Shown one piece after another: positions 3,424-54,678 of a stretch of 64,000 nt of DNA. Origin of the DNA: Chitinophaga pinensis. GTDB taxonomy: Bacteria; Bacteroidota; Bacteroidia; NS11-12g; UBA955. A program made the translations under genes and the position numbers. The stretch spans positions 32,143 to 96,142 of the forward strand of contig CAMBXL010000008.1 of assembly GCA_945871905.1 (NCBI GenBank). The letters are read 5' to 3'. The notes beneath the pieces were generated by a model. The model saw only the letters and a program-made list of their open reading frames with translations, had not been told where the DNA came from and searched no databases. Numbering within the stretch: position 1 is the stretch's first letter; the number at the start of each line of letters is the position of its first letter.

Positions 3424-5727
3424 ATGAGACGAAAAGTCAATCATATATTGAATAAAACAGGCCATTTTCTGTATGGACTAGTTTTGATTTTTGTGTTGCT
3501 CAATTGGCTTGTTCCGTTTCGTTTTTCTGTCGATTATTCTAAAAGTGTCTATGCCAAGGATGGTGAATTATTAGGGGTTTACCTAAACAAGACTGACAAG
3601 TGGCGATTGCATTCTTCCATCAATGACGTTTCTCCTTTGTTTTTAAAATCAATACTTTTAAAAGAGGATAAATGGTTTCATTACCATTGTGGTTTTAATC
3701 CTGTTTCAATCATTAAAGCGGCTTTTAATAATACAGTTTCTGGACAAAGAAAAGGAGGTGCATCCACTGTTACCATGCAAGTGGTTCGACTTATAAAACC
3801 GCAAAAAAGAACCTATGTCAATAAATTGATTGAGCTTTTTAGAGCAGTCCAATTGGAATACCAATTTTCTAAAAATGAGATATTGGAAATGTATATTAAT
3901 TTATTACCCTACGGTGGAAATATAGAAGGGGTAGGGAGTGCCACTTATATTTATTTTGGCAAGTCGCCTCAAGATTTAAGTTTGTCGGAGTGTGTTACGT
4001 TGTCTATTATTCCCAATAAACCAAGCAGTTTGAATATCAAAAAAAATCAAGCAGCCATTCAAGTAGCCAAAAATAAATGGATAAGAAAATTATCGCCTTT
4101 TTTAAATTTATCTAAATCAATTATTGATGATGCGTTGATGGAGCCTATGTCAATAAAATATTATCTAATGCCCAAAACTGCCCCTCAGTTTTGCAACCGA
4201 TTACTAGCCTCTAATGCAGAATTAAATAAGTATTATTCTACCATTTCATACCCATACCAAGTTCAAGTTCAACTTTTGTTAAATCAATACGTAGAAAAGT
4301 TGAAGGAGAAAAACATTAACAATGGTAGTTTAATGGTGATTGAAAATAAAACAGGCAACGTTTTGGTGTATTGTGGGAGTAATGATTTTAACGATGCGGA
4401 ACACTTTGGTCAGGTGGATGGAGTAAAGGCACTTCGTTCTCCCGGGAGTACATTGAAACCTTTTTTGTATGGTTTGTCTTTTGAAATGGGTTTGTACACG
4501 CCTGAAACTGTATTGCTTGATATTCCAGTGAATTTTGCAGCATACACTCCCGTTAATTATGATGAAACTTATAACGGTAAAATTAAGCTTAAGGAGGCTT
4601 TGGTTCAATCTTTGAATATTCCTGCGGTCAATTTGTTGAATACTATAGGGGTAAAAACGTTTAAGGGATTTTTGAAAACGAGCGGATTTTCAAATCTTCA
4701 GTCACAAGAATTGGGATTAAGTTTGGCATTGGGTGGTTGTGGTGTCACTTTGGAGGAACTTACTATGGCTTATTCTATGTTTGCAAACGAAGGTGTTTTG
4801 AAAAGGAAACAATTTCTAAAAGCAATGAACAAGACTCCTGTAAATCCTGTGTTAAGTCCTGCCGCCTCTTATTTGGTTAGTTCAATATTACAAACCGTGC
4901 AAAGGCCTGATTTGCCCTCTCAGTTGTTTAACTCTACATTCAGAATACCTAAGGTTGCATGGAAAACAGGAACTAGTTTTGGAAGGAAAGATGCATGGGC
5001 TATAGGTTATAATAAACAATATACTGTTGGTGTGTGGATTGGTAATTTTGATGGCGAAGGGGTTGCTTCTTTAAGTGGAGGTGAAATTGCAACACCCTTA
5101 CTGTTCGAAGTTTTTAATACTATTGATTACAATTCAAAAAAACAATGGTTTAGTGAACCTAAAGGTATTAGTTATCGAGCGGTATGCAGTCAAACAGGTT
5201 ATATTCCTTCTTCGGATTGTATTCAAACAATCAATGAACCTTATATCGAAAAACAAACAATCCAAAAAATATGTCAGCACAGTGTGCGCTTGAAAGTCAA
5301 TAAGGATAGTTCCCTCTATTTCTGTAACAGTTGTATCGAGGACAATCAATACATTGAAAAAATATATCCAAATTTGCCTGCAGAATTAATCAATTATTAC
5401 GAACAAGAAAAAATCGTTTATAAAAAATGGCCTCAGCACAATCCAAGTTGTCAAAGAGTAGAAACTGAAGGGGAATTGAAAATAGTGTCGCCGACCCATC
5501 AGTCGGAGTATTTGGTGGAAGAAAATTCGGACAGTAAATTAATGTTAAACGCCTCTGTTGACCATCAAGCAAAAACAGTTTATTGGTATATCAATGACAA
5601 GTTGATAAGTCAATCAAATCCTAATCAAGCCGTATTTGTGAAAATGCCACTTGGGAAGATGAAAATAACTTGTAGCGATGATTTGGGTCGTAAACAAGTG
5701 GTTTATATTACCGTTAAAAACTTTTAA
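3424..5727 (+). CDS. pbpC: Penicillin-binding protein 1C (transglycosylase + transpeptidase + C-terminal domain)
   Basis: EDKWF, GGASTVTMQVVRL, YGGNIEG transglycosylase motifs; SPGSTLKP (SxxK), SLN, KTGTS transpeptidase motifs; PBP1C-type C-terminus. Confidence 0.9.
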   Translation: MRRKVNHILNKTGHFLYGLVLIFVLLNWLVPFRFSVDYSKSVYAKDGELLGVYLNKTDKWRLHSSINDVSPLFLKSILLKEDKWFHYHCGFNPVSIIKAAFNNTVSGQRKGGASTVTMQVVRLIKPQKRTYVNKLIELFRAVQLEYQFSKNEILEMYINLLPYGGNIEGVGSATYIYFGKSPQDLSLSECVTLSIIPNKPSSLNIKKNQAAIQVAKNKWIRKLSPFLNLSKSIIDDALMEPMSIKYYLMPKTAPQFCNRLLASNAELNKYYSTISYPYQVQVQLLLNQYVEKLKEKNINNGSLMVIENKTGNVLVYCGSNDFNDAEHFGQVDGVKALRSPGSTLKPFLYGLSFEMGLYTPETVLLDIPVNFAAYTPVNYDETYNGKIKLKEALVQSLNIPAVNLLNTIGVKTFKGFLKTSGFSNLQSQELGLSLALGGCGVTLEELTMAYSMFANEGVLKRKQFLKAMNKTPVNPVLSPAASYLVSSILQTVQRPDLPSQLFNSTFRIPKVAWKTGTSFGRKDAWAIGYNKQYTVGVWIGNFDGEGVASLSGGEIATPLLFEVFNTIDYNSKKQWFSEPKGISYRAVCSQTGYIPSSDCIQTINEPYIEKQTIQKICQHSVRLKVNKDSSLYFCNSCIEDNQYIEKIYPNLPAELINYYEQEKIVYKKWPQHNPSCQRVETEGELKIVSPTHQSEYLVEENSDSKLMLNASVDHQAKTVYWYINDKLISQSNPNQAVFVKMPLGKMKITCSDDLGRKQVVYITVKNF

Positions 5728-36028: not shown

Positions 36029-38887
36029 ATGAAAAAGATTTATTCAATGAGTATTGCCATCTTGTTTATGGCTACCAATTTTGTACACGCTCAGAGTACA
36101 GCCACTTTAGTAAAAAAAGTGGAAGCACAGCCCGGAAAGCTCGTTATTCCATACGAAAAATACCGTTTACCTAACGGTTTAACAGTTATTATTAACGAAG
36201 ATCACAGTGATCCAATCGTGCATGTTGAGGTAACTTACCACGTAGGTTCAAACAGAGAAACACCAAGAAGAACTGGATTTGCCCACTTTTTTGAACACAT
36301 GATGTTCCAAGGTTCACAAAACGTTGCAGACGAAGAGCATTTTAAAATAGTTCAAGGTTCGGGTGGAGACATGAACGGAACCACTAACCGTGATAGAACT
36401 AACTATTTTGAAACAGTTCCTAGCAATATGTTAGAAACGGCATTGTGGTTAGAGTCTGACAGAATGGGTTTTTTATTACCAGCCTTTACTAACAAGAAAT
36501 TTGAAACGCAAAGAGCTACGGTAAAAAATGAAAAAGACCAACGTTATGCCAATGGATACGGTATGTTGCCAGAAATTCAAGACCAAACCATTTACCCATA
36601 TGCTCACCCATACAGCTGGCAAACAATTGGTTATGTTGATGATTTAAACGCAGCCGATTCTAATGATTTGAAAAATTTCTTTTTGAAATGGTATGGTCCT
36701 AACAACGCTATTTTAGTGATTTCGGGAGATGTAAATACACAAGCAGCATTGCAAATGGTAGAAAAGTATTTTGGTTCTATCAGTAGAGGTGTTGATGTGC
36801 CTGCATTATCAAAAAAACCTGTTACTCTAGAAGAAGTAAAAATTAAAAATGTTGACAGTAAAGTGCAATTGCCACTTTCTAGTATTACTTACCCAACAGT
36901 GCCAACTTTCCACAATGATGAAGCTGCACTTGATATTTTAGCTAGTATTTTAAGTGATGGTAAAAACTCATATTTATACAAACAATTCGTTGACAACGGA
37001 AGTGCTTTACAAGCTTCATGTTCAAACAGTACTTATGAAGTTGCTGGTGAATTCAATTTCATGATTGTTACTTATCCTGCTATGATGGGAGGTTTAAGTG
37101 AAAAAGAAATGAGAGAAGAATTAGCGAGAGCTTTACTGGCTTTTGAAGCACAAGGTTTTTCAGACGAAGATTTAAAAAGAATCAAACAAACTTACACTTC
37201 AAGATATTTTGGTATTTTGGAAACAGTAGCATCAAAAGCAAGTGTATTAACCTCATACGAAATGTTATTGCCAACGCGTGATTTTACAATTCAAGATGAT
37301 ATTAACAGATACGAAAAAGTAACAAAAGCGGATATAATGAGAGTTTACAATCAATATATCAAAGGTAAAAACTACGCTTGTGTTAACATTATGCCTCATC
37401 CAGATTACGTAAACAATAGAAATGCTAAGATTAAACCTTACGAAAGTGAAAATCCTTATGCAACAGTATCTCCTGATAAAACAGCTTACCAAGGTTTAGT
37501 TTACAAACCAAATGTGGACGCACCAGGATTTGACCGTAGCAAAAAACCAGTAGTTGCACCAGCAAAACCAGCTATTGTTCCTGAGTTTTTCAAAAACAAA
37601 TTTGAAAATGGGTTACAAGTTGTAGGAACAAAAAGTTCAGAAACACCAAGAGTATACATCAACATGGACATTAAAGGTGGTCACTTGTTTGAAGTAGGTA
37701 AAGTGAAAAATGGTACTGCTGTTATGCTTGGTATGATGATGAATGAAGGAACTACTACCAAAACTGCATTGGATGTTGAGAATAAATTGAAAGAATTAGG
37801 TAGTGAAATAAACTTTAGCAGTAATGGAAATAACATGTCTGCTTATGTAGAATGTTATAAAGATAAAGTTTCTGAGACTATGCAAATTTTTGAAGACCTA
37901 TTCTTCAATCCTGCATTCAACGAAAAAGATTTTACTACCAACAGAAAAGCTTTGTTGCAATCTATGGAGAACAATGCTTACGATGAAAACTATTTTGCTA
38001 GTAAAAAATTCAATGAGATGTTATATGGTAATGACAATCCAATTGGCGTAATGGCATTGTCTGATTACAGCGTTGCTAGTAAAATTACAATTGCAGATTT
38101 GAAAAACTACCACTCTAATTTCATGTCGCCTAACTTAGCTTCAATTACTATTATTGGAGATATAGATGAAGCAACAGCTCTTCAAAACTTAGCGTTCTTG
38201 AAAAAATGGGAAAATAAAAAATTAGAAATCCCAACTTATAATAAATTCCCTGCTTTAACTGCTCCACAAATTTTATTGGTCAACCAAGATTACGCAAAAC
38301 AAACCAATATAACAATGGGTTACAGATCGATTCCTTCAGAGTTTTTTGGTGATTATTATAAAGCATCAATTATGAACTTTGCTTTTGGTGGAGCCTTTAA
38401 CAGCCGTTTGAACCTAAACATAAGAGAAGACAAAGGTTGGACTTATGGAATTCGTTCAGGTTTCCGTTCTCCAAGTATGGGTTATCCAAGTACATTTATT
38501 GTGAGTGCAGGTGTAAAAGCTTCTGCTACAGATAGCTCAATCATAGAGGTTTTAAAAGAAATGAAAAACTATGCTACGAATGGTATCACTGATGAAGAGT
38601 TAGATTTTACTAAAAAATCATTGTTAGGAAGTGATGCATTAAAATACGAAAGTCCAAGTGATAAATTAGGATTTTTGAGCACTATAGTTCAATACAATTT
38701 AGATAGAAACTACAATGCACAAAGAGCAGAAATAGTTAAAAACATTACAAAAGAAGAAATCAATGCATTAGCTAAAAAATTGTTAGCTTTAGATAATTTA
38801 GTCATCATGTGTGTAGGCGATGATTTGAAAATCAAAGAAGGCTTAGAAAAATTAGGCTACGGCAAAGTAAAAGTAATGAAAATGTAA
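36029..38887 (+). CDS. M16 family zinc protease (insulinase/PqqL-like), single-chain
   Basis: GFAHFFEHMMF (HxxEH), NGTTNRDRTNYFE, WYGPNNA, RLNLNIREDKGWTYG. Confidence 0.92.
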   Translation: MKKIYSMSIAILFMATNFVHAQSTATLVKKVEAQPGKLVIPYEKYRLPNGLTVIINEDHSDPIVHVEVTYHVGSNRETPRRTGFAHFFEHMMFQGSQNVADEEHFKIVQGSGGDMNGTTNRDRTNYFETVPSNMLETALWLESDRMGFLLPAFTNKKFETQRATVKNEKDQRYANGYGMLPEIQDQTIYPYAHPYSWQTIGYVDDLNAADSNDLKNFFLKWYGPNNAILVISGDVNTQAALQMVEKYFGSISRGVDVPALSKKPVTLEEVKIKNVDSKVQLPLSSITYPTVPTFHNDEAALDILASILSDGKNSYLYKQFVDNGSALQASCSNSTYEVAGEFNFMIVTYPAMMGGLSEKEMREELARALLAFEAQGFSDEDLKRIKQTYTSRYFGILETVASKASVLTSYEMLLPTRDFTIQDDINRYEKVTKADIMRVYNQYIKGKNYACVNIMPHPDYVNNRNAKIKPYESENPYATVSPDKTAYQGLVYKPNVDAPGFDRSKKPVVAPAKPAIVPEFFKNKFENGLQVVGTKSSETPRVYINMDIKGGHLFEVGKVKNGTAVMLGMMMNEGTTTKTALDVENKLKELGSEINFSSNGNNMSAYVECYKDKVSETMQIFEDLFFNPAFNEKDFTTNRKALLQSMENNAYDENYFASKKFNEMLYGNDNPIGVMALSDYSVASKITIADLKNYHSNFMSPNLASITIIGDIDEATALQNLAFLKKWENKKLEIPTYNKFPALTAPQILLVNQDYAKQTNITMGYRSIPSEFFGDYYKASIMNFAFGGAFNSRLNLNIREDKGWTYGIRSGFRSPSMGYPSTFIVSAGVKASATDSSIIEVLKEMKNYATNGITDEELDFTKKSLLGSDALKYESPSDKLGFLSTIVQYNLDRNYNAQRAEIVKNITKEEINALAKKLLALDNLVIMCVGDDLKIKEGLEKLGYGKVKVMKM

Positions 38888-38912
38888 GATCGTTTTATTT
38901 TGATTTAATTTT

Positions 38913-38945
38913 AAAAAACCGACATCAATTGATGTCGGTTTTTTT
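38913..38945 (+). terminator. Intrinsic terminator after the M16 peptidase
   Basis: AAAAAACCGACATC-AATT-GATGTCGGTTTTTTT. Confidence 0.85.
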
Positions 38946-39112
38946 GTTTAAAGGGTTTATGTAGTGAAGAGTGATTGTTTAGTTGTTGAGGTGTTTAGTT
39001 GTTTATTTGTTTAAAGGGTTGAAAAGGTTTAAAGGGTTTAAATGTTCCACGCCGATCAGTGTGATTGTTTATTTGTTTAGGTGTTTATTCGTTTGTTTGT
39101 TTAAAGGGTTTA
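38943..39112. repeat. 8-mer-periodic low-complexity direct repeats (two 50-nt units, 45/50 identical)
   Basis: Units at 38971-39020 and 39061-39110. TTTAAAGGGTT occurs four times. Confidence 0.8.
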
Positions 39113-39117
39113 ATTAT

Positions 39118-39277
39118 CACCCACTAGGCTGAGCCTAGCCACTTGAGTTATTCAGCTATGCTGAATAGTACCGAAGGGTGTCAAAAAGGTTAGATTGTCA
39201 TCGGTATAGACGCCATGCTTGGCGTCTGTTAATTAGAAATTCCAATAGTCATTATGGAAAATTTTGTCCTCAAAATT
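39118..39277. repeat. Stack of short palindromes (REP-like)
   Basis: CTAGGCT-G-AGCCTAG, TATTCAGC-TAT-GCTGAATA, AGACGCCA-TGCT-TGGCGTCT, AAATTTTG-TCCT-CAAAATTT. Confidence 0.7.
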
Positions 39278-39296
39278 TATTCAGAATCTATTAATG

Positions 39297-39324
39297 GCTG
39301 TCATACCGACAACGGAGGTATCTC
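39297..39324 (+). repeat. Element X, copy 1 (REP-like hairpin)
   Basis: GCTGTCATACCGACAACGGAGGTATCTC, 22/28 identical to the inverted copy at 39932-39959. Confidence 0.75.
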
Positions 39325-39475
39325 GGTTCTCATTGATAAGCTGCCTGATAAAGTTAATAGTTTCCTGAAGCCTCTGGAGGTTAATAGTTAATGGTTTTAA
39401 AATTCATAAATCAAAAATCCTTCTTAGGTTTCCAAAGGTGCCATTCAATGCGGTGGTTTTTGAGGGTGAACGAAA

Positions 39476-39610
39476 ACTGTGCGGAGGCGTCCACGAATGG
39501 CGCGAAATTTTAATTTGACAGCTTGGGGAGCTGGTGTGTGTGTTAAGGCAAATTGAAGTTTTTCATTCGTGGTGGGTTTTTTGCTTACTTTTTTCTCATA
39601 AAAAAGTAAG
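39476..39610 (+). repeat. Element Y, copy 1 (structured repeat / candidate ncRNA)
   Basis: CCACGAATG/CATTCGTGG stem, inner AAATTTTAATTTG/CAAATTGAAGTTT stem, terminal CTTACTTTTTT/AAAAAAGTAAG hairpin. Confidence 0.65.
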
Positions 39611-39710
39611 AAAGAGATTAAAAGTAAATGAAGATTTTATCGCAAAACCGTTAAAATTTGAGTTAAGGTTTTAACTCCGAATGAAATTTTATCTTAACTT
39701 TAAAATCTTT

Positions 39711-39850
39711 TTTCTTTTGATGTTAAAAGAAACAAAAACCACCACCCAATCAAAAATTCCGTTTTTGTGGCTGCAGGCTCGGCTGCCTATCCACAAAAGG
39801 GAATTTTCACGCATTGGCTGTTCCGAGGCTTCGGAACACAGCCGCACGGT
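39711..39850 (-). repeat. Element Y, copy 2 (inverted)
   Basis: Reverse complement shares ACYGTGCGG, AATG.CGYGAAA and TGGTGG-TTTTTG-TT(A/T)CTTTT...AAAAG with copy 1, with equivalent stems. Confidence 0.65.
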
Positions 39851-39931
39851 AACTTAAAAAAAGTTGGAATAAGGTATGAAAAAATGGAGTCGTTAAGAAG
39901 CTCTGGTTCATTTAATAAAAGCTGTCAGGAA

Positions 39932-39959
39932 GAGATGTCTCCTTTGTCAACATGACAGC
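39932..39959 (-). repeat. Element X, copy 2 (inverted)
   Basis: Reverse complement GCTGTCATGTTGACAAAGGAGACATCTC. Confidence 0.75.
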
Positions 39960-40088
39960 AGGGAAATAGTGGATAGTCCGAATAGCTATCGGGAAATGGT
40001 TTCACGCCATTCAGCGTGTGGTTAATAGTTTTAAAAATCTTCAATCTTTACGTTCTATTGATATCTAAAGAGTAAAACCCAAATAGAA

Positions 40089-42941
40089 TTATAACCCAAT
40101 CGATTTATATAAAATATCGTGGATTTTGATGCGGTAATTTCCGTTTATTAGTTCCTTGTTTTCCTCATCAGGACAAATGCGATTACTTAAAAACACAAAT
40201 ACCAAATTATATTTAGGGTCGGCCCAAGCACATGTACCTGTAAAGCCCGTATGGCCAAATGTCAATGGACTGCCAAAAATACTTGCAGGACTTGTATTGC
40301 CACTAAAATCGGGTTTGTCAAATCCCAATCCACGACGGCTGTCTCCTCTTTGATAGGCAGTAAACCTTTGTATTGTTGATGATTTAATGTATTCTTTGCC
40401 TTTGTATGTGCCACCATCATTAATCATTAGCATCAATTGTGCTAGGTCTTGAGCATTCGAGAAAACTCCCGCATGTCCACTAACTCCTCCCAACATTGCT
40501 GCCCCTGGGTCGTGAACATAGCCGCAAATTTCTTGTTGCCTAAACAATCGGTCCATTTGTGTAGGTGCAATGTTGTTGCGATCATGTATTTTCCATGGAT
40601 TATATCCCATGCTATTGAGTTGCATCGGTTTGTAAAAATGTGTTGAAACATACTCGTCTAATGCTTGTCCTGTAATATTTTCAACGACTAATTGCATCAA
40701 CATTAACCCCAAATCACTGTAGCGATAGACTCTTGATTCAAGTGGTGAAGTAAAAATTCTTTTGTAAAGTGTGTCTTTGTTTGCTTTGAGCATAAAGAAA
40801 TTATCAGCTACTTTAATGCAATAGGCTGAATCTTCTTTAGCGCAATAAATACTATCAATAAATGGCAAGGTCTCTTTGTAAAAGGGAATCCATGCCTTTA
40901 GACCAGCTCTGTGTTGAAGCACTTCGCTGATAACAAGTGAACCTTTGTTTGTTCCTATGGCTTGTGGCACATAGTCGCCTATGGTTTTGTTTAAATCCAA
41001 GCGCCCTTCGTCAAAAAGTTTCATAACAGCCAATGTAGTAGAGGCTATTTTAGTAATAGAGGCAATGTCGTAAATAGTTTGTTCGTTTACTCTTGTAGAT
41101 TTGTCATAATTGAGATGTCCAAATGATTTGTTGTAAATAACTTGACCATCTTTAATCGCAATAATTCGACATCCCGGCGCTCCTTTTTTGTCAATTAATT
41201 GAGAAACAATAGGGTCTATGTCTTTTAATATGGTAGAATCCACCCCTAAAGCGTTGGCTTTGTAGTTTTTGGTTGTTGGTAGATTTATTGTTGGAGTTTG
41301 TGGGGTAATAAAAACAGGTAAGGTTCCAACAGGTTTGATGATGCCATAAAGAACATCTGCACTTGCTTTCTGAAAATAACTTAAGTCTTCGTAGGCATTA
41401 ATTAAGGTTATATTTTTGTTGAACTTTGCCAATACATAAGGATTTGCAAAATTCACAACGATTAATTTCTTTTTGTTGGCCAATTGGTTGATAAATTGAA
41501 TATCGGTGTTTTCAAAACCTGCCGTTTGTTGATTCCATACTTTGGGTTGGTGCAAACTAATAATAACCTGTTTGTATTCGCTAAGGCTAATAATGGCTTG
41601 GTTTTGTTTGCTAAGCGGACTGCCTTTAGCCAAACGAATGACTTTAACATTGTCGTGTTTTTTGAGGTATTCACTCCACATAGATTGGTCTAAATCACCT
41701 ATTGTGACAAGTGCGGTTTTCTCATTCTTATTAATCGGAATTAAGTTTTTACTGTCTGAGAATAAGGTAATGGTTTGATTGGCTATCGATTGAATAAGGG
41801 CTTCATTTTCTTTGCCTTGCAAATCAATCGTTAATGAATCAAGGTCGATTGGGGCGTAGTTGTTTAAACCTGCAAATTCTTTCCATTTTAGTATTTTTCT
41901 GACCCTGTGGTTCAATTCGTCTTCAGAAATTTGCGCATTTAAAATAGCGGATTTTATGAGTTCAAATGCCAAGGGTACATTTTCGCTAAAAAGCAAAACA
42001 TCGTTTCCTGCCAAAAAAGCTTCAAGGTCAACATAACCTGGGGCAAAGTGTTTGGCAACGCCTTTCATATTCAGCGCATCTGTAAAAACAAGACCTTCAA
42101 ACTTCATGGTTTGTTTCAATAAAGTATCAATAACAAATTTAGAAAGAGAAGTCGAGCGGTTTGGTCTGTTGTCCAAAGCGGGATATTGAAGGTGTGCAAC
42201 CATGATGGAGGCCACTCCATTTTTTATTAATTCTCTAAATGGATAAAGCTCTAAAGTGTCAAGCTCTGCTAATGTTTTGTTTACAACAGGCAAGTCCTTG
42301 TGAGAATCTATAGAAACGTCACCGTGGCCAGGAAAATGTTTGGCACAAGAGAGAACACCTTCGCTGAGCATTCCATTGCTGTAGGCGGTTCCAAACTTTG
42401 CTACTTTTTCTTTTTTATCACCAAAGGCCCTGAAGCCAATAATGGGATTGTTTGGATTGTTGTTGATATCAATATCTGGGGCAAAGTTGATATGAATACC
42501 TAGTCGTTTACATTGTTTTGCCAAGGCAGAACCGTATTGAAAAACCAGAGAATCATTAGGTAAAGCCCCTAAAGTGATGGCATACGGAAACTTTTGAGTG
42601 TTTTGCAAACGCATAGAAAGTCCCCATTCTCCGTCAATTCCAATCATTAGAGGCGTGTTTGAAAGAGATTGGTAGTAATTGGTTAAATACGCTTGTTTAA
42701 GAGGACTGTTTTGAAAAAAAATCAATCCTCCGATGTGGTATTTTAAAATTAACTCTTCTATTTGTGCGGTGTGACTTGCTTCTTTGTTTGAATAGGCTGC
42801 CACCATAAATAACTGACCGATTTTTTCGTCGATTGTCATTTTTTTCAATTGGTGGTCATACCAAAAATCGGCATCTTGTGCATTGGATTTGAGGGCACAA
42901 AATAGGAGAGAGGCAAAAAGAACAAATCTATAGATAGTCAA
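40089..42941 (-). CDS. GH3 beta-N-acetylglucosaminidase fused to a beta-lactamase-family serine hydrolase
   Basis: IGIDGEWG, NFAPDID, KHFPGHGD, FTDALNM; C-terminal DIASITK (SxxK), YSDLG, GHTGFTG. Confidence 0.92.
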   Translation of the reverse strand: MTIYRFVLFASLLFCALKSNAQDADFWYDHQLKKMTIDEKIGQLFMVAAYSNKEASHTAQIEELILKYHIGGLIFFQNSPLKQAYLTNYYQSLSNTPLMIGIDGEWGLSMRLQNTQKFPYAITLGALPNDSLVFQYGSALAKQCKRLGIHINFAPDIDINNNPNNPIIGFRAFGDKKEKVAKFGTAYSNGMLSEGVLSCAKHFPGHGDVSIDSHKDLPVVNKTLAELDTLELYPFRELIKNGVASIMVAHLQYPALDNRPNRSTSLSKFVIDTLLKQTMKFEGLVFTDALNMKGVAKHFAPGYVDLEAFLAGNDVLLFSENVPLAFELIKSAILNAQISEDELNHRVRKILKWKEFAGLNNYAPIDLDSLTIDLQGKENEALIQSIANQTITLFSDSKNLIPINKNEKTALVTIGDLDQSMWSEYLKKHDNVKVIRLAKGSPLSKQNQAIISLSEYKQVIISLHQPKVWNQQTAGFENTDIQFINQLANKKKLIVVNFANPYVLAKFNKNITLINAYEDLSYFQKASADVLYGIIKPVGTLPVFITPQTPTINLPTTKNYKANALGVDSTILKDIDPIVSQLIDKKGAPGCRIIAIKDGQVIYNKSFGHLNYDKSTRVNEQTIYDIASITKIASTTLAVMKLFDEGRLDLNKTIGDYVPQAIGTNKGSLVISEVLQHRAGLKAWIPFYKETLPFIDSIYCAKEDSAYCIKVADNFFMLKANKDTLYKRIFTSPLESRVYRYSDLGLMLMQLVVENITGQALDEYVSTHFYKPMQLNSMGYNPWKIHDRNNIAPTQMDRLFRQQEICGYVHDPGAAMLGGVSGHAGVFSNAQDLAQLMLMINDGGTYKGKEYIKSSTIQRFTAYQRGDSRRGLGFDKPDFSGNTSPASIFGSPLTFGHTGFTGTCAWADPKYNLVFVFLSNRICPDEENKELINGNYRIKIHDILYKSIGL

Positions 42942-45652: not shown

Positions 45653-47065
45653 ATGAGTTCAAATAATACAGTTATTGATGCGATTGAGAAACAGGGAACT
45701 GTTTTCGGTCATCCCAAAGGTTTGTTTTTGTTGTTTTTTACTGAATTATGGGAAAGATTCAGTTATTACGGAATGCGTGGTATATTGATGCTTTACATGA
45801 CCAAATTATGGGCAGAAAATGGTTTAAACATTCCCGAAGATTCAGCTTCTCTTATTTATGGAACATTTACAGGCTTTGTTTATTTTACTCCATTGTTAGG
45901 TGGTTGGATTGCGGATAAATTTATTGGTCAAAGAATGGCAATTACTATAGGTGGTTTAACCATGGCAGCAGGACAGTTGACTTTGTTTGCTATGGGTAAC
46001 CATGCAGGTTTAGTTATTGGTTTGGTTTTATTAGTGATTGGAAATGGATTTTTTAAGCCTAATATTTCAACCATAGTTGGTCAATTGTACCGCGAAGGAG
46101 ACGAAAAAAGAGATTCAGCATTTTCGATTTTTTACATGGGGATTAACTTGGGTGCTTTATTAGCTCCTTTGGTTTGTGGTTTCCTTGCCGAAGAATACTT
46201 CGCTGTTAAAAGTGCAGATGGAACTGCTATTCTTTCTTATGGATTTAAATACGGGTTCCTAGCGGCAGCTATTGGAATGATAATGGGGCAAATTGCTTTT
46301 AATTTATTGTCCAAAAAATATCTTTTAACCATTGGTGAAAAACCAGTGAAACATGAAGAGGGTTCAGAAGAAAGTATCAAAAACAAAGCACCGTTAACCA
46401 AACAAGAAAAAGACAGAATTACAGTTATCTTTATTTTAACTGCATTGGTTATTTTCTTTTGGGCAGGTTTCGAACAAGCGGGTTCATCATTGACGCTATA
46501 TACTGATAAATATATTGACAGATCTGCTTTTGGAACAATTATTCCAACTACTTATTTCCAATCAGTAAATCCATTGTTCATAGTGTTGCTAGCTCCATTG
46601 TTTGCTTGGTTTTGGACATCTAAATTTGGTAAAAAATTAACCACACCTATCAAAATGAGTTTGGGTATGATTTTATTAGGCGTAGGTTTCTTGTTTATGA
46701 TTATTGCCACTGGTGAAGTCGTAAAAAGCGGTGCAGGAGATGCCGAAGTTGTGACACAGAAAGCTGCCTTAATCTGGTTATTATTTACTTATTTTTTCCA
46801 TACAGTAGGGGAATTGTGTTTATCACCAGTAGGTTTATCAGTTGTTACCAAATTATCACCACCAAAATTAGCGTCATTGTTAATGGGTGTTTGGATGTTA
46901 TCGTCTGCGTTTGCCAATTGGATTGGTGGATTTGTGGCATCGTATGTCAACAGATTAGGTGCTGAAACGATTTTTTATTCAATAGCAATCTTTGTTATTG
47001 TTCTTGGTTTGTTAATGTTACTATTAGCGAAAAAACTAAGTTCAATGATGCATGGTGTCAAATAA
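45653..47065 (+). CDS. POT family proton-dependent oligopeptide transporter
   Basis: HPKGL, ELWERFSYYGMR, GNGFFKPNIS, FYMGINLG, GELCLSPVG. Confidence 0.95.
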   Translation: MSSNNTVIDAIEKQGTVFGHPKGLFLLFFTELWERFSYYGMRGILMLYMTKLWAENGLNIPEDSASLIYGTFTGFVYFTPLLGGWIADKFIGQRMAITIGGLTMAAGQLTLFAMGNHAGLVIGLVLLVIGNGFFKPNISTIVGQLYREGDEKRDSAFSIFYMGINLGALLAPLVCGFLAEEYFAVKSADGTAILSYGFKYGFLAAAIGMIMGQIAFNLLSKKYLLTIGEKPVKHEEGSEESIKNKAPLTKQEKDRITVIFILTALVIFFWAGFEQAGSSLTLYTDKYIDRSAFGTIIPTTYFQSVNPLFIVLLAPLFAWFWTSKFGKKLTTPIKMSLGMILLGVGFLFMIIATGEVVKSGAGDAEVVTQKAALIWLLFTYFFHTVGELCLSPVGLSVVTKLSPPKLASLLMGVWMLSSAFANWIGGFVASYVNRLGAETIFYSIAIFVIVLGLLMLLLAKKLSSMMHGVK

Positions 47066-47092
47066 ACGATAGTTTTAAAATAGTTAAATTAT

Positions 47093-47123
47093 AAAAAGTC
47101 CCGCTTTTAAGCGGGACTTTTTT
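47093..47123. terminator. Intrinsic terminator
   Basis: AAAAAGTCCCGCT-TTTA-AGCGGGACTTTTTT. Confidence 0.85.
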
Positions 47124-47364
47124 ATTGTATTAGGAATGGAGTTGTTTGCGCTCTTCTATTTCTCTCTCTTATGTTTCGGTCCTTCAGTGTATTCTTTGCC
47201 AGACTCTTTCTTTACGATAGAGTAATCGGTATAATCACTATAAGATTTGGAGTAAAAATCGTAAACATTTGAGAAAGGAGAAGCAGAAGTTGAGTGTAAG
47301 CGAAAAACTGTTGGAAAACTATCACCTTTCTCTAAAAAACACCTTGATTATAAACTTAAATCAA

Positions 47365-47937
47365 TTAATAATACTGGCATAATGCCAATCCAATCAGAAG
47401 AAACAACGCTTCACCACTAATAGATTTATTCCCTTCCTGTTTTTGAATGGATTGTTTAATTGATTTAATCGCTATGGTAATTTGATTTTCAACCGTTTTG
47501 GGAGTAATGCCCATTATTGCCCCAATTTCTTTGTTACTTAATTGTTCTTTTCGGCTCAAAATGAAAATTTGTTTACACTTGCGGGGTAACTTGTCAATGG
47601 TTTTAAAAATTAGTTGTTCCATTTCTTTGCCTTCCATCTGTTGTAAAACGTTAGCATTGTTATTGGGGATTGACATAAACACATCTGTTTGTTCAAACAC
47701 CATTCTTTTTTTCTTCAAAAAATTAATGCTTTTGTTTTTTACAACCGTGTATAAGTATGATTTAATAGAATCATCTAACGCAAGTTGATCGCGTTTTTCC
47801 CATAGGGCTATAAAAGCATCATTTACAATTTCGCTAGCATCTTCTTCATTTTTAACATATTGCAAGCAAAACCAATGCAACGCTGAATGCCATTTTTTAA
47901 AAAGTGTTTCAATATGTTGATACTCAGCGCTGCTAAT
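47365..47937 (-). CDS. ECF sigma-70 factor (Bacteroidota type); start codon uncertain
   Basis: EEDASEIVNDAFIALWEKR (region 2), LP.KCKQIF.LSR..QLSNKEI..IMGI..KTVENQI (region 4). First canonical start is TTG at 47880, but the frame is open to 47949. Confidence 0.85.
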   Translation of the reverse strand: MSSAEYQHIETLFKKWHSALHWFCLQYVKNEEDASEIVNDAFIALWEKRDQLALDDSIKSYLYTVVKNKSINFLKKKRMVFEQTDVFMSIPNNNANVLQQMEGKEMEQLIFKTIDKLPRKCKQIFILSRKEQLSNKEIGAIMGITPKTVENQITIAIKSIKQSIQKQEGNKSISGEALFLLIGLALCQYY

Positions 47938-52442: not shown

Positions 52443-52472
52443 TTTGTTTTATTAAATCTTATTTTATATTTG
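52443..52472 (+). promoter_or_regulatory. Bacteroidota sigma-70 promoter (-33 TTTG / -7 TAnnTTTG)
   Basis: TTTG at 52443-52446 and TATATTTG at 52465-52472, directly upstream of the riboswitch. Confidence 0.7.
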
Positions 52473-52479
52473 CACCCGA

Positions 52480-52675
52480 TAACGGTTCTTTTTTGTAGAT
52501 GTTTACTTATAAAAAAGATTAAAAGGGAATTGGGTGTAAGTCCCAAACATTTCCCGATGCTGTAAGTTTTTGCATTGTTTATTCAATGCCCTTTTTTTGA
52601 AATAATAACCACTGTTGACTTTGTTGATGGGAAGGTTCAAAAAAAGCAAAAAAACAAGTCAGAAGACCTGCCTTT
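52480..52675 (+). promoter_or_regulatory. Cobalamin (B12) riboswitch
   Basis: GGTTC...AAAAGGGAA-TTGGGTGTAAGTCCCAA...CCCGATGCTGTAAG...CCACTG...GGGAAGG...AAGTCAGAAGACCTGCC, upstream of a TonB receptor. Confidence 0.93.
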
Positions 52676-52782
52676 GTCAAACAAATTTTCAATGCTTTCG
52701 GAGAAAAGGCAAGAAAAGGTAAGTGTCATACATTTGTCATTTCGTTTTTTTTCTATTGTATTGATTTTAAAGAGAAATTAAA

Positions 52783-54678
52783 ATGAAAGGTCTATACATC
52801 ATCTGCTTGTTGTTTTGCCAAGGACTTATCCTTGAGGCACAAAACCTCAACGACACTTTGTTGTTGAAAGGCTATGATTTTAAATGGACTAAATCCAACC
52901 ATCCCACCGGAACCCTATCTATTTCTTTGCCTTTTGGTGAATCGCAAACATTAAGTGATGCCATTGGTAGTCAAACTTCTCTTTTCGTAAAACAGTATTC
53001 ACCAAGCAATTTAGCCACAGTTTCTATGCGTGGAATGGGAGCGCAACATACTTCAATGCTGTGGAATGGAATTAATTTGCAGAGTTGCATGAATGGACTC
53101 AAGGATTTGAATCTGATTCCTTTGTTTTTTATTGATGAAGCAAGTATTGAAACTGGTGCAAACTCTAGTTTAATGGGACACGGAACCATCGCAGGAACAG
53201 TGCAATTGAAAAACCAATTGGAGAATGAAAAAAGAATAAAATTGGATATAAATAGAGCTAGTTTTAACAATCAAAGTATCGGATTCTCAATTTCTGGAGT
53301 TAATAAATACTTTAAACACCGTACTCGAATTGTTTACAGGTCGGGAGAAAATGATTTTGAATTTGTTAATTATTTTAAAAGAGAATTGCCCATTGAAAGA
53401 ATTCAAAACAACCAATTGAAACAGATGGGTTTGATGCAAGAATTTTCGTGGGTTATAAAAAAACATTCTTTTTATTTCAATACTTGGTTGATGCAAACAA
53501 GTAGAAATCTTCCAAGTCCCACAGGTGTCGTTAATAATTCTAATGAGTACCAAGAGGATTTTAACTACAAAATGTATTTGCAACACCAATTCAAAATATC
53601 TGCTAAAAGCAAGTTAAGCCAAAAGCTATGTTACATTGATGAATTTCTCAACTATTATAACAATGCCTTATTGCCTTCTCATAGTCGTTCTAAGTCTGCC
53701 ATTTTGGAATCTGAATGGAACACGCAGTTAAACCCCAATCTTGAATTTACAAGCAATGCCAACTTTACCCACCAACTTGCTTTTTCTGATGGGTATCGAA
53801 TGGGCGTAACCCGAAATGTGTTTACTTTGTTTCAAAGATTAGATTGGTACAATAATTCTCGCCGAAATAAACTTTCATTTTCTGTTCGTGAATTGTTTTA
53901 CGACAACAGAATTGCACCTCTTTCACCTGAGTTAGGGCTCGAAAAAAAGCTGAGTAAAAAATGGATGTTGAAATCAAATGCTGCCCTTAGTTTCCGTTTA
54001 CCAACTTTTAATGATTTGTATTGGCAGCCGGGAGGAAATGGTGATTTGAAGCCAGAAAAAGGCAGAAAAGCAGAAGTAACCGCTTTGTATAACACACGTC
54101 ATTGGGAGTTTTCTGTAACAGCCTTTAAACATGTGGTTGAAAATTGGATCATGTGGTTGCCAACCCAAAGTGCTGCTATTTGGATTGCCCAAAATGCTAA
54201 ACAGGTCAAAAGCAATGGACTAGAGTTTAACCAAACCCTTCATAAAGCATTTTTTCAAAAACATCATTTTAGAGTTATAACGCGATACCAATTTGTAAAA
54301 ACTATAAATACAGAAACCTACCAAAATCAATTGGTGCAGTTAGGAAAACAATTGATTTATACGCCTAATCACACCGGTGTTTTGAATCTGGATTACAGAT
54401 ACAAGTCTTTTAATGTATTTGCGGAATCACAATATATTGGAGTGCGATACTCTCAGTCTGACCAACATATTAACAGCAAGTTGGACGACTATTTACTCTT
54501 TAATTCTGGTGTTTCTATACGATTGAATACCAAACGACACCAAGGTACTCTTGTGTTTGCGGTCAAAAATATTTTCAATCGCACTTATCAAGTCATGGAA
54601 AATAGACCTATGCCTCTCAGAAATTATCAATTAACTTTAAAAATAAATATCAATTATGACTCAAAAAATCAACGTTAA
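52783..54678 (+). CDS. btuB: TonB-dependent receptor, BtuB-like
   Basis: Plug motif S.RGMGAQHTSMLWNGI.LQS, LSFRLPTFNDLYW..GGN.DLKPE, KNIFN..YQ...RPMP.RNY; riboswitch context. Confidence 0.85.
   Translation: MKGLYIICLLFCQGLILEAQNLNDTLLLKGYDFKWTKSNHPTGTLSISLPFGESQTLSDAIGSQTSLFVKQYSPSNLATVSMRGMGAQHTSMLWNGINLQSCMNGLKDLNLIPLFFIDEASIETGANSSLMGHGTIAGTVQLKNQLENEKRIKLDINRASFNNQSIGFSISGVNKYFKHRTRIVYRSGENDFEFVNYFKRELPIERIQNNQLKQMGLMQEFSWVIKKHSFYFNTWLMQTSRNLPSPTGVVNNSNEYQEDFNYKMYLQHQFKISAKSKLSQKLCYIDEFLNYYNNALLPSHSRSKSAILESEWNTQLNPNLEFTSNANFTHQLAFSDGYRMGVTRNVFTLFQRLDWYNNSRRNKLSFSVRELFYDNRIAPLSPELGLEKKLSKKWMLKSNAALSFRLPTFNDLYWQPGGNGDLKPEKGRKAEVTALYNTRHWEFSVTAFKHVVENWIMWLPTQSAAIWIAQNAKQVKSNGLEFNQTLHKAFFQKHHFRVITRYQFVKTINTETYQNQLVQLGKQLIYTPNHTGVLNLDYRYKSFNVFAESQYIGVRYSQSDQHINSKLDDYLLFNSGVSIRLNTKRHQGTLVFAVKNIFNRTYQVMENRPMPLRNYQLTLKININYDSKNQR

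Follow-up and report, generated by a model that had tools for sequence, protein, structure and literature searches.

The 64-kb stretch of DNA analysed here (the window, 35% G+C, to which all coordinates refer) carries genes whose nearest public relatives are those of uncultured freshwater Bacteroidota/Bacteroidia. Two of these genes, convergently oriented and coding for an M16 peptidase and a GH3/beta-lactamase fusion protein, are separated by a gap of 1201 bp (38888-40088). A preliminary description had noted there two structured elements, X and Y, each in two inverted copies on either side of a central perfect palindrome (X> Y> hairpin <Y <X), and no credible gene. Both observations stand. 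The largest open reading frame (ORF) of the gap has 62 aa, with no Pfam match, and X, Y and the palindrome sit where they had been placed, far beyond chance. Complementarity between the two 28-nt X arms, at 39297-39324 and 39932-39959, is 79%; in the whole window a degenerate motif for X has two occurrences and no more, where 0.01 would be expected. The left half of the Y pair, locally aligned with the reverse complement of the right one, scores 40, as compared with 20.8 +/- 2.5 for dinucleotide shuffles. Folded as single-stranded DNA (ssDNA), the segment 39290-39965 reaches -104.9 kcal/mol, while its shuffled counterparts reach -71.7 +/- 4.6 (z = -7.2). At the gathering score, the sole Rfam match of the window is a cobalamin riboswitch located outside the gap, neither X, Y nor the gap falling in any covariance model, and nothing but hairpin-like noise appears in the gap at E values up to 10. 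A tRNA/tmRNA scan found none, and a scan for sigma-70 promoters and terminators, ill-suited to Bacteroidota promoters, gave nothing above chance.

Comparison with related genomes places the arrangement in a broader context. The gap was blasted against the intergenic regions of the three closest metagenome-assembled genomes (MAGs; JBIPNH01, JBILJV01 and JBBAKM01) and against strain contigs. Nearly every base of 38964-40031 was matched by modules of other intergenic regions, 0.6-1.3 kb long; only 39593-39671 and 39856-39903 found no counterpart in the MAG comparison, and the former was later matched in metagenome contigs. The gap thus holds at least 12 repeat modules (Table 1), including three further hairpins with an (A/T)GTCAT tag (M5-M7), while the remaining 62.8 kb of the window contain no copy of any of them. 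The three MAGs display many such mosaics of 0.6-1.3 kb, many between convergent genes, others between tandem or divergent ones; small ORFs overlapping these mosaics have no Pfam match, nor does any ORF of the gap. We consider it fairly probable that the gap is an intergenic repeat mosaic typical of this lineage, resembling bacterial interspersed mosaic elements (BIMEs), and neither a gene nor a single nested element, in which X belongs to the class of hairpins served by the small GIY-YIG nucleases named Ssn, and Y is a structured repeat of its own. At least a dozen short hairpin-repeat families, several of them strand-biased, would accumulate and reshuffle in long gaps near gene ends.

Turnover at this site is fast. 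A Logan contig with an identical peptidase gene breaks at 38942, where the mosaic starts. In loci L002-L006, where the peptidase is 98% identical, the gap is again about 1 kb long, but its content and order are different, and the downstream gene codes for a Por_Secre_tail protein. There X takes the form of two compact doublets (in L004 at 4944-5027 and 5108-5193, with 28-nt arms and a 28-nt loop), and Y is absent; other relatives have still other orders, so that X> Y> hairpin <Y <X, taken as a conserved unit, has to be abandoned. In relatives with 77-79% identity the gap measures about 130-250 bp, next to other neighbour genes. Because both groups of relatives differ from the window in gap and neighbours, the site is best described as a gene-order break undergoing rapid structural change. 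The break coincides precisely with the right-hand end of the mosaic, with the GH3/beta-lactamase gene in the window as against the Por_Secre_tail gene in L002 and L004.

X is a widespread repeat. Scanning one genome per species with the pattern TGTCATRYYGACRAMGGAGRYATCT gave at least 155 matches in at least 116 stretches; among the matches listed (155 in 116 loci, on which the counts below are based), nearly all come from Bacteroidota (Chitinophagaceae, Cytophagales, Flavobacterium, Runella, Hymenobacter), with many copies in some genomes. The element reads TGTCAT-RYY-GAC..GGAG-RY-ATCT, an oriented hairpin with a 5' (C/T)GTCAT tag and an ATC tail, the stem of which can be drawn either with 5 bp and a 9-nt loop or with 8 bp, two tandem G.A mismatches and a 3-nt loop. 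Covariation is seen at three variable positions of the stem, which read GCC/GGC (59 matches), GTC/GAC (30), ACC/GGT (14) or ATC/GAT (5), and the remaining combinations are mostly of the G.U type on the tagged strand (G.T in DNA), the one hint in the sequences of a strand-specific recognition as ssDNA. The two arms of the window likewise differ by compensatory changes in their stems (ATACC/GGTAT versus ATGTT/GACAT). Adjacent units lying within 150 nt of each other have their tags outward in 39 cases and inward in 32, and are arranged in tandem in 35. Both X and Y are multi-locus repeats, with copies in related MAGs and metagenome contigs, and X also forms inverted doublets. Scans for X and Y in viral contigs gave 0 matches, a BLAST search of plasmids with the whole block gave none, and a string search of the literature for the X core yielded nothing relevant. 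Other arrangements of X are found elsewhere. A Chitinophagaceae MAG (JACMLY01; L082, 2343-2655) has eight X units head-to-tail, with a period of about 41 bp (X plus GAGAGAACCCTCCCGCC), up to the end of the contig, and similar tandem arrays are present in L022, L076, L078 and L102. In the Cytophagales MAG CAWIFH01, X lies on many contigs inside a longer repeat, which spans 140 nt or more (TAAGTGCTTAGACATAAATACATTAAACTGTT-X-TTCCAAGTATAATGCTTCCCAGATG...; L012, L014, L016, L026, L034, L037, L043, L059, L060, L090, L105, L113 and L125), which may be a larger element carrying the X hairpin.

A candidate partner of X is suggested by work on Neisseria, where SsnA, a single-domain GIY-YIG protein of 94 aa, binds, as ssDNA, the repeat called NTS (CGTCATTCCCGCGMAVGCGGGAATCYRG), cutting immediately upstream of it, and where the NTS has the layout CGTCAT-stem-loop-stem-ATC (CGTCATTCCCGCGMAVGCGGGAATC); related motifs also flank SsnA homologues elsewhere among bacteria (Chenal et al., 2025; PMC11893778). 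From the 116 X loci, all ORFs of 100 aa or more were clustered, and a profile search for GIY-YIG was then made. The largest cluster, and the only one found adjoining X units, is a GIY-YIG protein of about 100 aa. Genes of this type (Pfam PF01541, 94-110 aa) are present at seven of the 116 loci, in seven genomes; for six of these genes an X-like unit lies no more than about 100 nt away, and those of L045, L078, L018 and L124 are bracketed by X units on both sides, in L045 as X> gene <X with the tags outward. The seven proteins match the SsnA orthologue of Neisseria gonorrhoeae with E values from 3e-27 to 2.5e-15 and 34-44% identity, within the threshold used by Chenal et al. (E < 1e-10), in genomes other than that of the window, for which no ssn gene was found in the window itself or in the loci of the lineage. 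That orthologue, located by tblastn, has 94 aa and sits amid seven exact NTS copies in 1.6 kb. NCBIfam gave nothing above cut-off for the GIY-YIG proteins, and a sequence search of the PDB a weak UPF0213 match, 1ZG2. Of the enzyme genes that the preliminary description had proposed to look for beside the repeats, those of the GIY-YIG type do adjoin X in other genomes; a RAYT (REP-associated tyrosine transposase, REP standing for repetitive extragenic palindrome) of the HUH type is not supported, the enzyme that accompanies X there being a small Ssn homologue.

Because X brackets GIY-YIG genes homologous to SsnA and has an NTS-like layout, we take it as the Bacteroidota counterpart of the Ssn-related motif (SRM). 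Like the NTS and the SRM (PMC11893778), X has a (C/T)GTCAT tag followed by a short stem, a loop, the stem again and an ATC tail, all in a fixed orientation; it is found in many copies clustered in intergenic regions and, in other Bacteroidota genomes, it flanks genes for single-domain GIY-YIG proteins of 94-110 aa. It differs from them in its covarying stem of 5 bp, after which comes a conserved GAC-GAA-GGAG, where the NTS has a stem of 7 bp, in lying outside the degenerate string published for SRM searches, and in the lack of an ssn gene in the window. X also corresponds to the CGTC-tagged REPs, a class known from Bacteroidetes, among others, for which a search for associated tyrosine transposases found none (Di Nocera et al., 2013; PMC3733652). 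As in these, the unpaired tag CGTC is often TGTC, A-T and T-A pairs start the stem, the unpaired tail is short, and inverted dimers with a conserved spacer are common. The families described have stems of 8-9 bp and loops of 4-5 nt, where X reaches 8 bp only by way of its G.A mismatches and otherwise has 5 bp and a 9-nt loop; the comparison is one of described features. Judged by these features, X is a Bacteroidota version of the Ssn-related motif, otherwise known as a CGTC-tagged REP, and not a new system; of the undescribed repeat system put forward in the preliminary description, it is Y that is new. An Ssn homologue encoded elsewhere in the genome would bind and cut the X arms in trans, and X would spread or be maintained via single-stranded intermediates. 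In a plasmid collection, Ssn-like GIY-YIG genes are carried by replicons of Novosphingobium aromaticivorans, Azospirillum lipoferum, Sinorhizobium and Sphingobium, taxa that overlap the 2013 list of CGTC-REP carriers, which fits the idea that CGTC-REPs are Ssn motifs. Two N. gonorrhoeae 'plasmid' records in that context, 2.17 Mb each, are evidently chromosomes.

The limits of Y could be refined to 39471-39592 (+) for the core of the left unit, Ya, and to 39727-39855 (-) for that of the right one, Yb, or 39471-39663 and 39855-39672 with their tails. In related MAGs and metagenome contigs Ya has nine full copies and a truncated one, Yb five and a partial one. Profiles of both, run with nhmmer on the 116 Bacteroidota loci, found copies in the close lineage only, and a two-anchor Y pattern matched seven stretches of metagenome contigs, five of them true (L128-L131 and L133) and two by chance (L127 and L132). 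At their ends Ya and Yb have motifs in common, ACYGTGCGG ... ATTSG(G)GTGGTGG with T-rich sequence after it, and their tails are homologous. The Ya core, about 112 nt, is nearly invariant over its nine copies; the tails vary and have received insertions. In the consensus fold, a closing stem of 9 bp precedes a T-run, and there are a second stem of 10 bp with one compensatory change, many conserved G.U pairs and a small hairpin, P3, in which G.U pairing accommodates the variants on the sense strand but not on the other. Stem variants in general are mostly G.U-compatible on the sense strand. The sense strand folds at -34.0 kcal/mol and the antisense strand at -16.4; Yb has neither such an asymmetry nor compensatory changes. 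Ya and Yb are two diverged members of a new structured repeat of about 190 nt, restricted to this lineage and outside Rfam. Single Ya units (L128-L131) end at positions equivalent to 39650-39663, and a single Yb unit (L108) begins at 39672. As units of both types end in GAGTTAA, their tail-to-tail junction creates the perfect central palindrome. The junction, with the tails and Yb, recurs in L129 (81% identity over 280 nt), but there the opposite core is a third Y-type core, Yc, which is also found in the orthologous gap of L103, where module M10, often placed directly upstream of Ya, continues straight into it. Other orders are <Yb M10-Ya> <Xb (L085, L133), with Xb the minus-strand X unit, or a Y alone, and Ya is followed by <Xb in five loci. 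The orientation of Y with respect to neighbouring genes is mixed, and its upstream flanks differ between copies, with no conserved promoter in them. Most Yb copies and one Ya copy contain a 23-nt hairpin (AGTCCCGC-loop-GCGGGATTC; L085 at 975, L108 at 5241, L129 at 12915, L133 at 3476 and 3768) that is missing from the Yb of the window; it behaves as an insertion/deletion polymorphism within another repeat, and its stem resembles that of dRS3/NTS. One Ya copy is interrupted by a GGGGAGGGCC... element.

Several observations weigh against the interpretation of the gap as a mosaic of Ssn-class X hairpins and Y repeats. A GIY-YIG profile run on the window, on the loci of the lineage (about 130 kb) and on the metagenome loci found no ssn gene, nor was any other nuclease or transposase gene found in the window or the lineage loci; the window encodes no nuclease for its repeats, as stated from the start, and a trans-acting enzyme is thus hypothetical in this organism. 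X fails to match the SRM string of the literature, HGTCWYN(0-2)YYVSBRHN(0-5)WNVSBRGN(0-2)RNCYNB, whether in the two arms of the window or in its commonest Bacteroidota form. The string recovers the canonical NTS and has just three matches in 844 kb of X-bearing loci, and for this reason we see in X a variant that it misses. Ssn has been shown to cleave ssDNA and to affect transformation (PMC11893778), and is not known to carry out transposition. Y, for its part, lacks a tag, terminal inverted repeats and a target duplication. Finally, the near-invariant Ya core and the G.U-rich pairing of its sense strand would also fit a functional RNA.

This last point leads to more ambitious possibilities. 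Ya and Yb, together with Yc and M10, could be undescribed functional structured nucleic acids travelling with Ssn-type hairpins, either as a multi-copy non-coding RNA or as the single-strand substrate of some enzyme, the TGTCAT-GAC..GGAG hairpin then forming a large branch of Ssn targets in Bacteroidota that the published motif has missed. We regard this as rather unlikely; were it true, the Ssn mosaics of Bacteroidota would form an organised system of two components, as opposed to junk. Less likely again, Ya and Yb would simply be small structured RNA genes or cis-acting elements (terminators, stabilisers of 3' untranslated regions), convergent and meeting in a common terminator region, the surrounding DNA repeats being incidental. 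Such an explanation would account for a Ya core that is preserved in several genomes while flanks and tails vary, for the run of U after the closing stem, and for the strand asymmetry and sense-strand G.U pairs just described, including those of P3. It is at odds with the lack of a conserved promoter-like sequence upstream, with flanks that differ from copy to copy, with the mixed orientation relative to genes, and with the dispersal of the copies, some of them truncated or interrupted by other repeats. The z-scores of the folds are modest (-1.8 and -2.1), compensatory pairs number one for Ya and zero for Yb, Rfam offers no matching family, not even at E = 10, and a G.T wobble fits an ssDNA substrate equally well.

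How the mirror symmetry arose is a further question, to which the preliminary description had answered with a Y doublet inserted into the loop of an X doublet. The nested block would then be one composite non-autonomous element, with X as its ends and Y as its cargo, an explanation that we find unlikely. To its credit, the closest strain has intact compact X doublets without Y at the orthologous place, sequence resembling the loop of such doublets adjoins both arms of the window (39324-39355 and 39897-39934), ssn genes elsewhere are bracketed by outward-tagged X units in an arrangement that X> ... <X mirrors, and small hairpins are demonstrably lodged within other modules. Yet the block as a whole was not found a second time, and the modules occur in other orders and orientations. 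The loop sequence next to the two arms was considered as a target-site duplication, which was rejected, since a lone Xa (the plus-strand X unit, in L084) and lone Xb units (L084, L103) carry the same tails. The orthologous gap of L103 consists of an X doublet (X-1), the M10-Yc unit, a lone Xb and a second X doublet (X-2); the Xa of the window is closest to X-1 (96% identity), whereas the flank of its Xb resembles that of X-2. Read most simply, the arms of the window are the outer members of two neighbouring X units between which Y-type units have turned over, and probably not a single doublet split by one insertion. The habit of forming inverted dimers, combined with insertions, replacements and deletions that locally turn over the sequence between those two X units, would be enough to generate the symmetry. 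Neither Y nor the block has the traits of a miniature inverted-repeat transposable element, as single Ya and Yb units occur without a partner and the flanks show no duplication. What survives of the BIME-like composite proposed at the outset is a multi-copy mosaic of hairpin repeats with small elements inside others; the single doublet-in-doublet unit does not.

BIMEs and inverted REP doublets (REPINs) served by RAYTs (Bertels and Rainey, 2011; Nunvar, 2010) resemble what we see in their inverted doublets forming long hairpins, their mosaic clusters in gaps by gene ends and the expectation that a single-copy enzyme acts in trans; they differ in that X has no GTAG tag, that no association with a RAYT was found, and that the enzyme next to X comes from a different nuclease superfamily. 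That the repeats are REPINs or BIMEs spread by a RAYT (TnpA_Y1), for example of the Bacteroidetes-specific subclass 2.6, is very improbable: inverted doublets with a conserved spacer and mosaic clustering do recall such systems, and TnpA_Y1 genes of Bacteroidetes have atypical secondary structures on their flanks (Quentin et al., PMC6006769), but X has the (C/T)GTCAT of the CGTC class, in which no link to a RAYT was found (PMC3733652), and among the ORF clusters of the listed X loci, which were not screened with Pfam for Y1 transposases, the only one found adjoining X is the Ssn-like GIY-YIG one.

A mosaic of Ssn-class X hairpins and Y repeats has a close parallel in the intergenic mosaics of Neisseria (dRS3/NTS arrays), where tag-hairpin repeats are also interleaved with unrelated families, change fast and lie at gene-order breaks; by contrast, the repeats that partner X in the present mosaics, such as Ya, Yb, M4, M7 and M10, have no relation to those of Neisseria and are specific to a lineage of freshwater Bacteroidia. 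A puzzling symmetric structure would thereby enter a known framework, that of tag-hairpin repeats served by Ssn GIY-YIG single-strand nucleases, which appears to reach across Bacteroidota with a variant of the motif invisible to the published string. Counts of Ssn-related repeats in Bacteroidota are probably too low, because that string misses the X variant. The mosaics, which coincide with gene-order breaks between strains, also break short-read assemblies, and this matters for the quality of the MAGs of freshwater Bacteroidia. As a compact and highly conserved structured repeat, Y is a candidate for work at the RNA level and on the specificity of Ssn.

Table 1. The gap, its modules and the flanking genes (window coordinates; copies are given by locus)
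Feature	Position	Strand	Remarks
M16 peptidase gene	36029-38887	+	Left neighbour of the gap
Perfect 16+16 palindrome, A/T runs on both sides	38913..38944	.	100% complementary; just 3' of the peptidase stop codon
G+T-rich direct repeats (GTTTAAAGG 9-mers, ~90-bp duplication)	38946..39114	+	Copies in L098, L017, L004, L041, L103
CACGCC-N6-G(C/T)GTG hairpin module	39036-39079	+	Within the G+T-rich block
M4 hairpin (CCCACTAGGCTGAGCCTAGCCAC...)	39114..39150	+	~9 copies: L098, L065, L085, L017, L084
M5, hairpin TATTCAGC-TAT-GCTGAATA	39144..39190	+	L041 (98% identity), L004
M6, TGTCAT tag then hairpin AGACGCCA-TGCT-TGGCGTCT	39194..39245	+	Copies in L004, L103
M7, AGTCAT tag, long loop, TTCAGAATCT	39241..39292	+	~9 copies: L041 x2, L065 x2, L017, L004
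Xa unit	39296..39362	+	Core 39299-39323 (TGTCAT ACC GACAACGGAG GT ATCT), tail CTCGGTTCTCATTGATAAGCTGCCTGATAAAGTTAATAG; 10-13 copies in related loci
M9 (GTTAATAG ... CCTC-TG-GAGG ... GTTAATAG)	39353..39390	+	L017, two places
M10, A-rich leader then CCATTCAATGCGGTGGTTTTTG	39396..39467	+	5-6 copies: L085, L084, L065, L103 x2, L108
Ya extended unit	39471..39663	+	Copies in L085, L017, L121, L128, L129 x2, L130, L131, L133
Central perfect palindrome GAGTTAA-GGTT-TTAACTC	39660..39677	.	3' ends of extended Ya and Yb meet tail-to-tail
Yb extended unit	39672..39855	-	Copies in L108, L085, L129, L133, L128 (partial)
Xb unit	39905..39959	-	Core 39933-39957; commonest module, 17-18 copies in related loci
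M16 modules: CGATAGCTATCG palindrome and CACGCC-ATTCA-GCGTG hairpin	39974..40031	+	Copies in L017, L041, L098
GH3/beta-lactamase fusion gene	40089-42941	-	Right neighbour of the gap

Some details complete the description of the modules. The palindrome that follows the peptidase gene is kept in the orthologous loci L004 and L103 and looks like a bidirectional terminator outside the repeat mosaic. Directly 3' of it come the runs of GTTTAAAGG-type 9-mers and the G+T-rich duplication, strongly strand-asymmetric; the runs are also present in L004 (4408-4493) and recur in the mosaics of L098 and L017, and their 9-bp periodicity could be that of a protein-binding array. M5 is a TGTCAT-tagged unit in L004, its tag being degenerate in the window. 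The core and tail of Xa are found as one unit in L084 as well, and the tail of Xb, CTCTTCCTGACAGC, folds back onto its GCTGTC head. The extended Ya unit is made of the core, an A/T hairpin (39581-39613) and a tail with the terminal GAGTTAA; that of Yb is built from its core, a hairpin rich in A/T and a tail with homology to that of Ya. An element GGGGAGGGCCTCACCCC ... GGAGAGGGG is a further recurrent module of the mosaics, often immediately after an Xb unit (L004, 5028-5090; L103, 976-1000 and 1386-1430; L121, 65-110; L084, about 5380-5440).

The fusion gene to the right of the gap codes for a protein of 950 aa with an N-terminal GH3 domain and a C-terminal domain of the beta-lactamase fold. 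Elsewhere in the window, a perfect hairpin (AAAAAGTCCCGC-TTTTAA-GCGGGACTTTTT, 47098-47125), which resembles a bidirectional terminator, lies in the gap 47065-47365 and has a GTCCCGC stem in common with the 23-nt hairpin of the Yb copies. The cobalamin riboswitch (RF00174, 91.5 bits) is located at 52466-52689 (+), directly upstream of the ORF 52783-54678.

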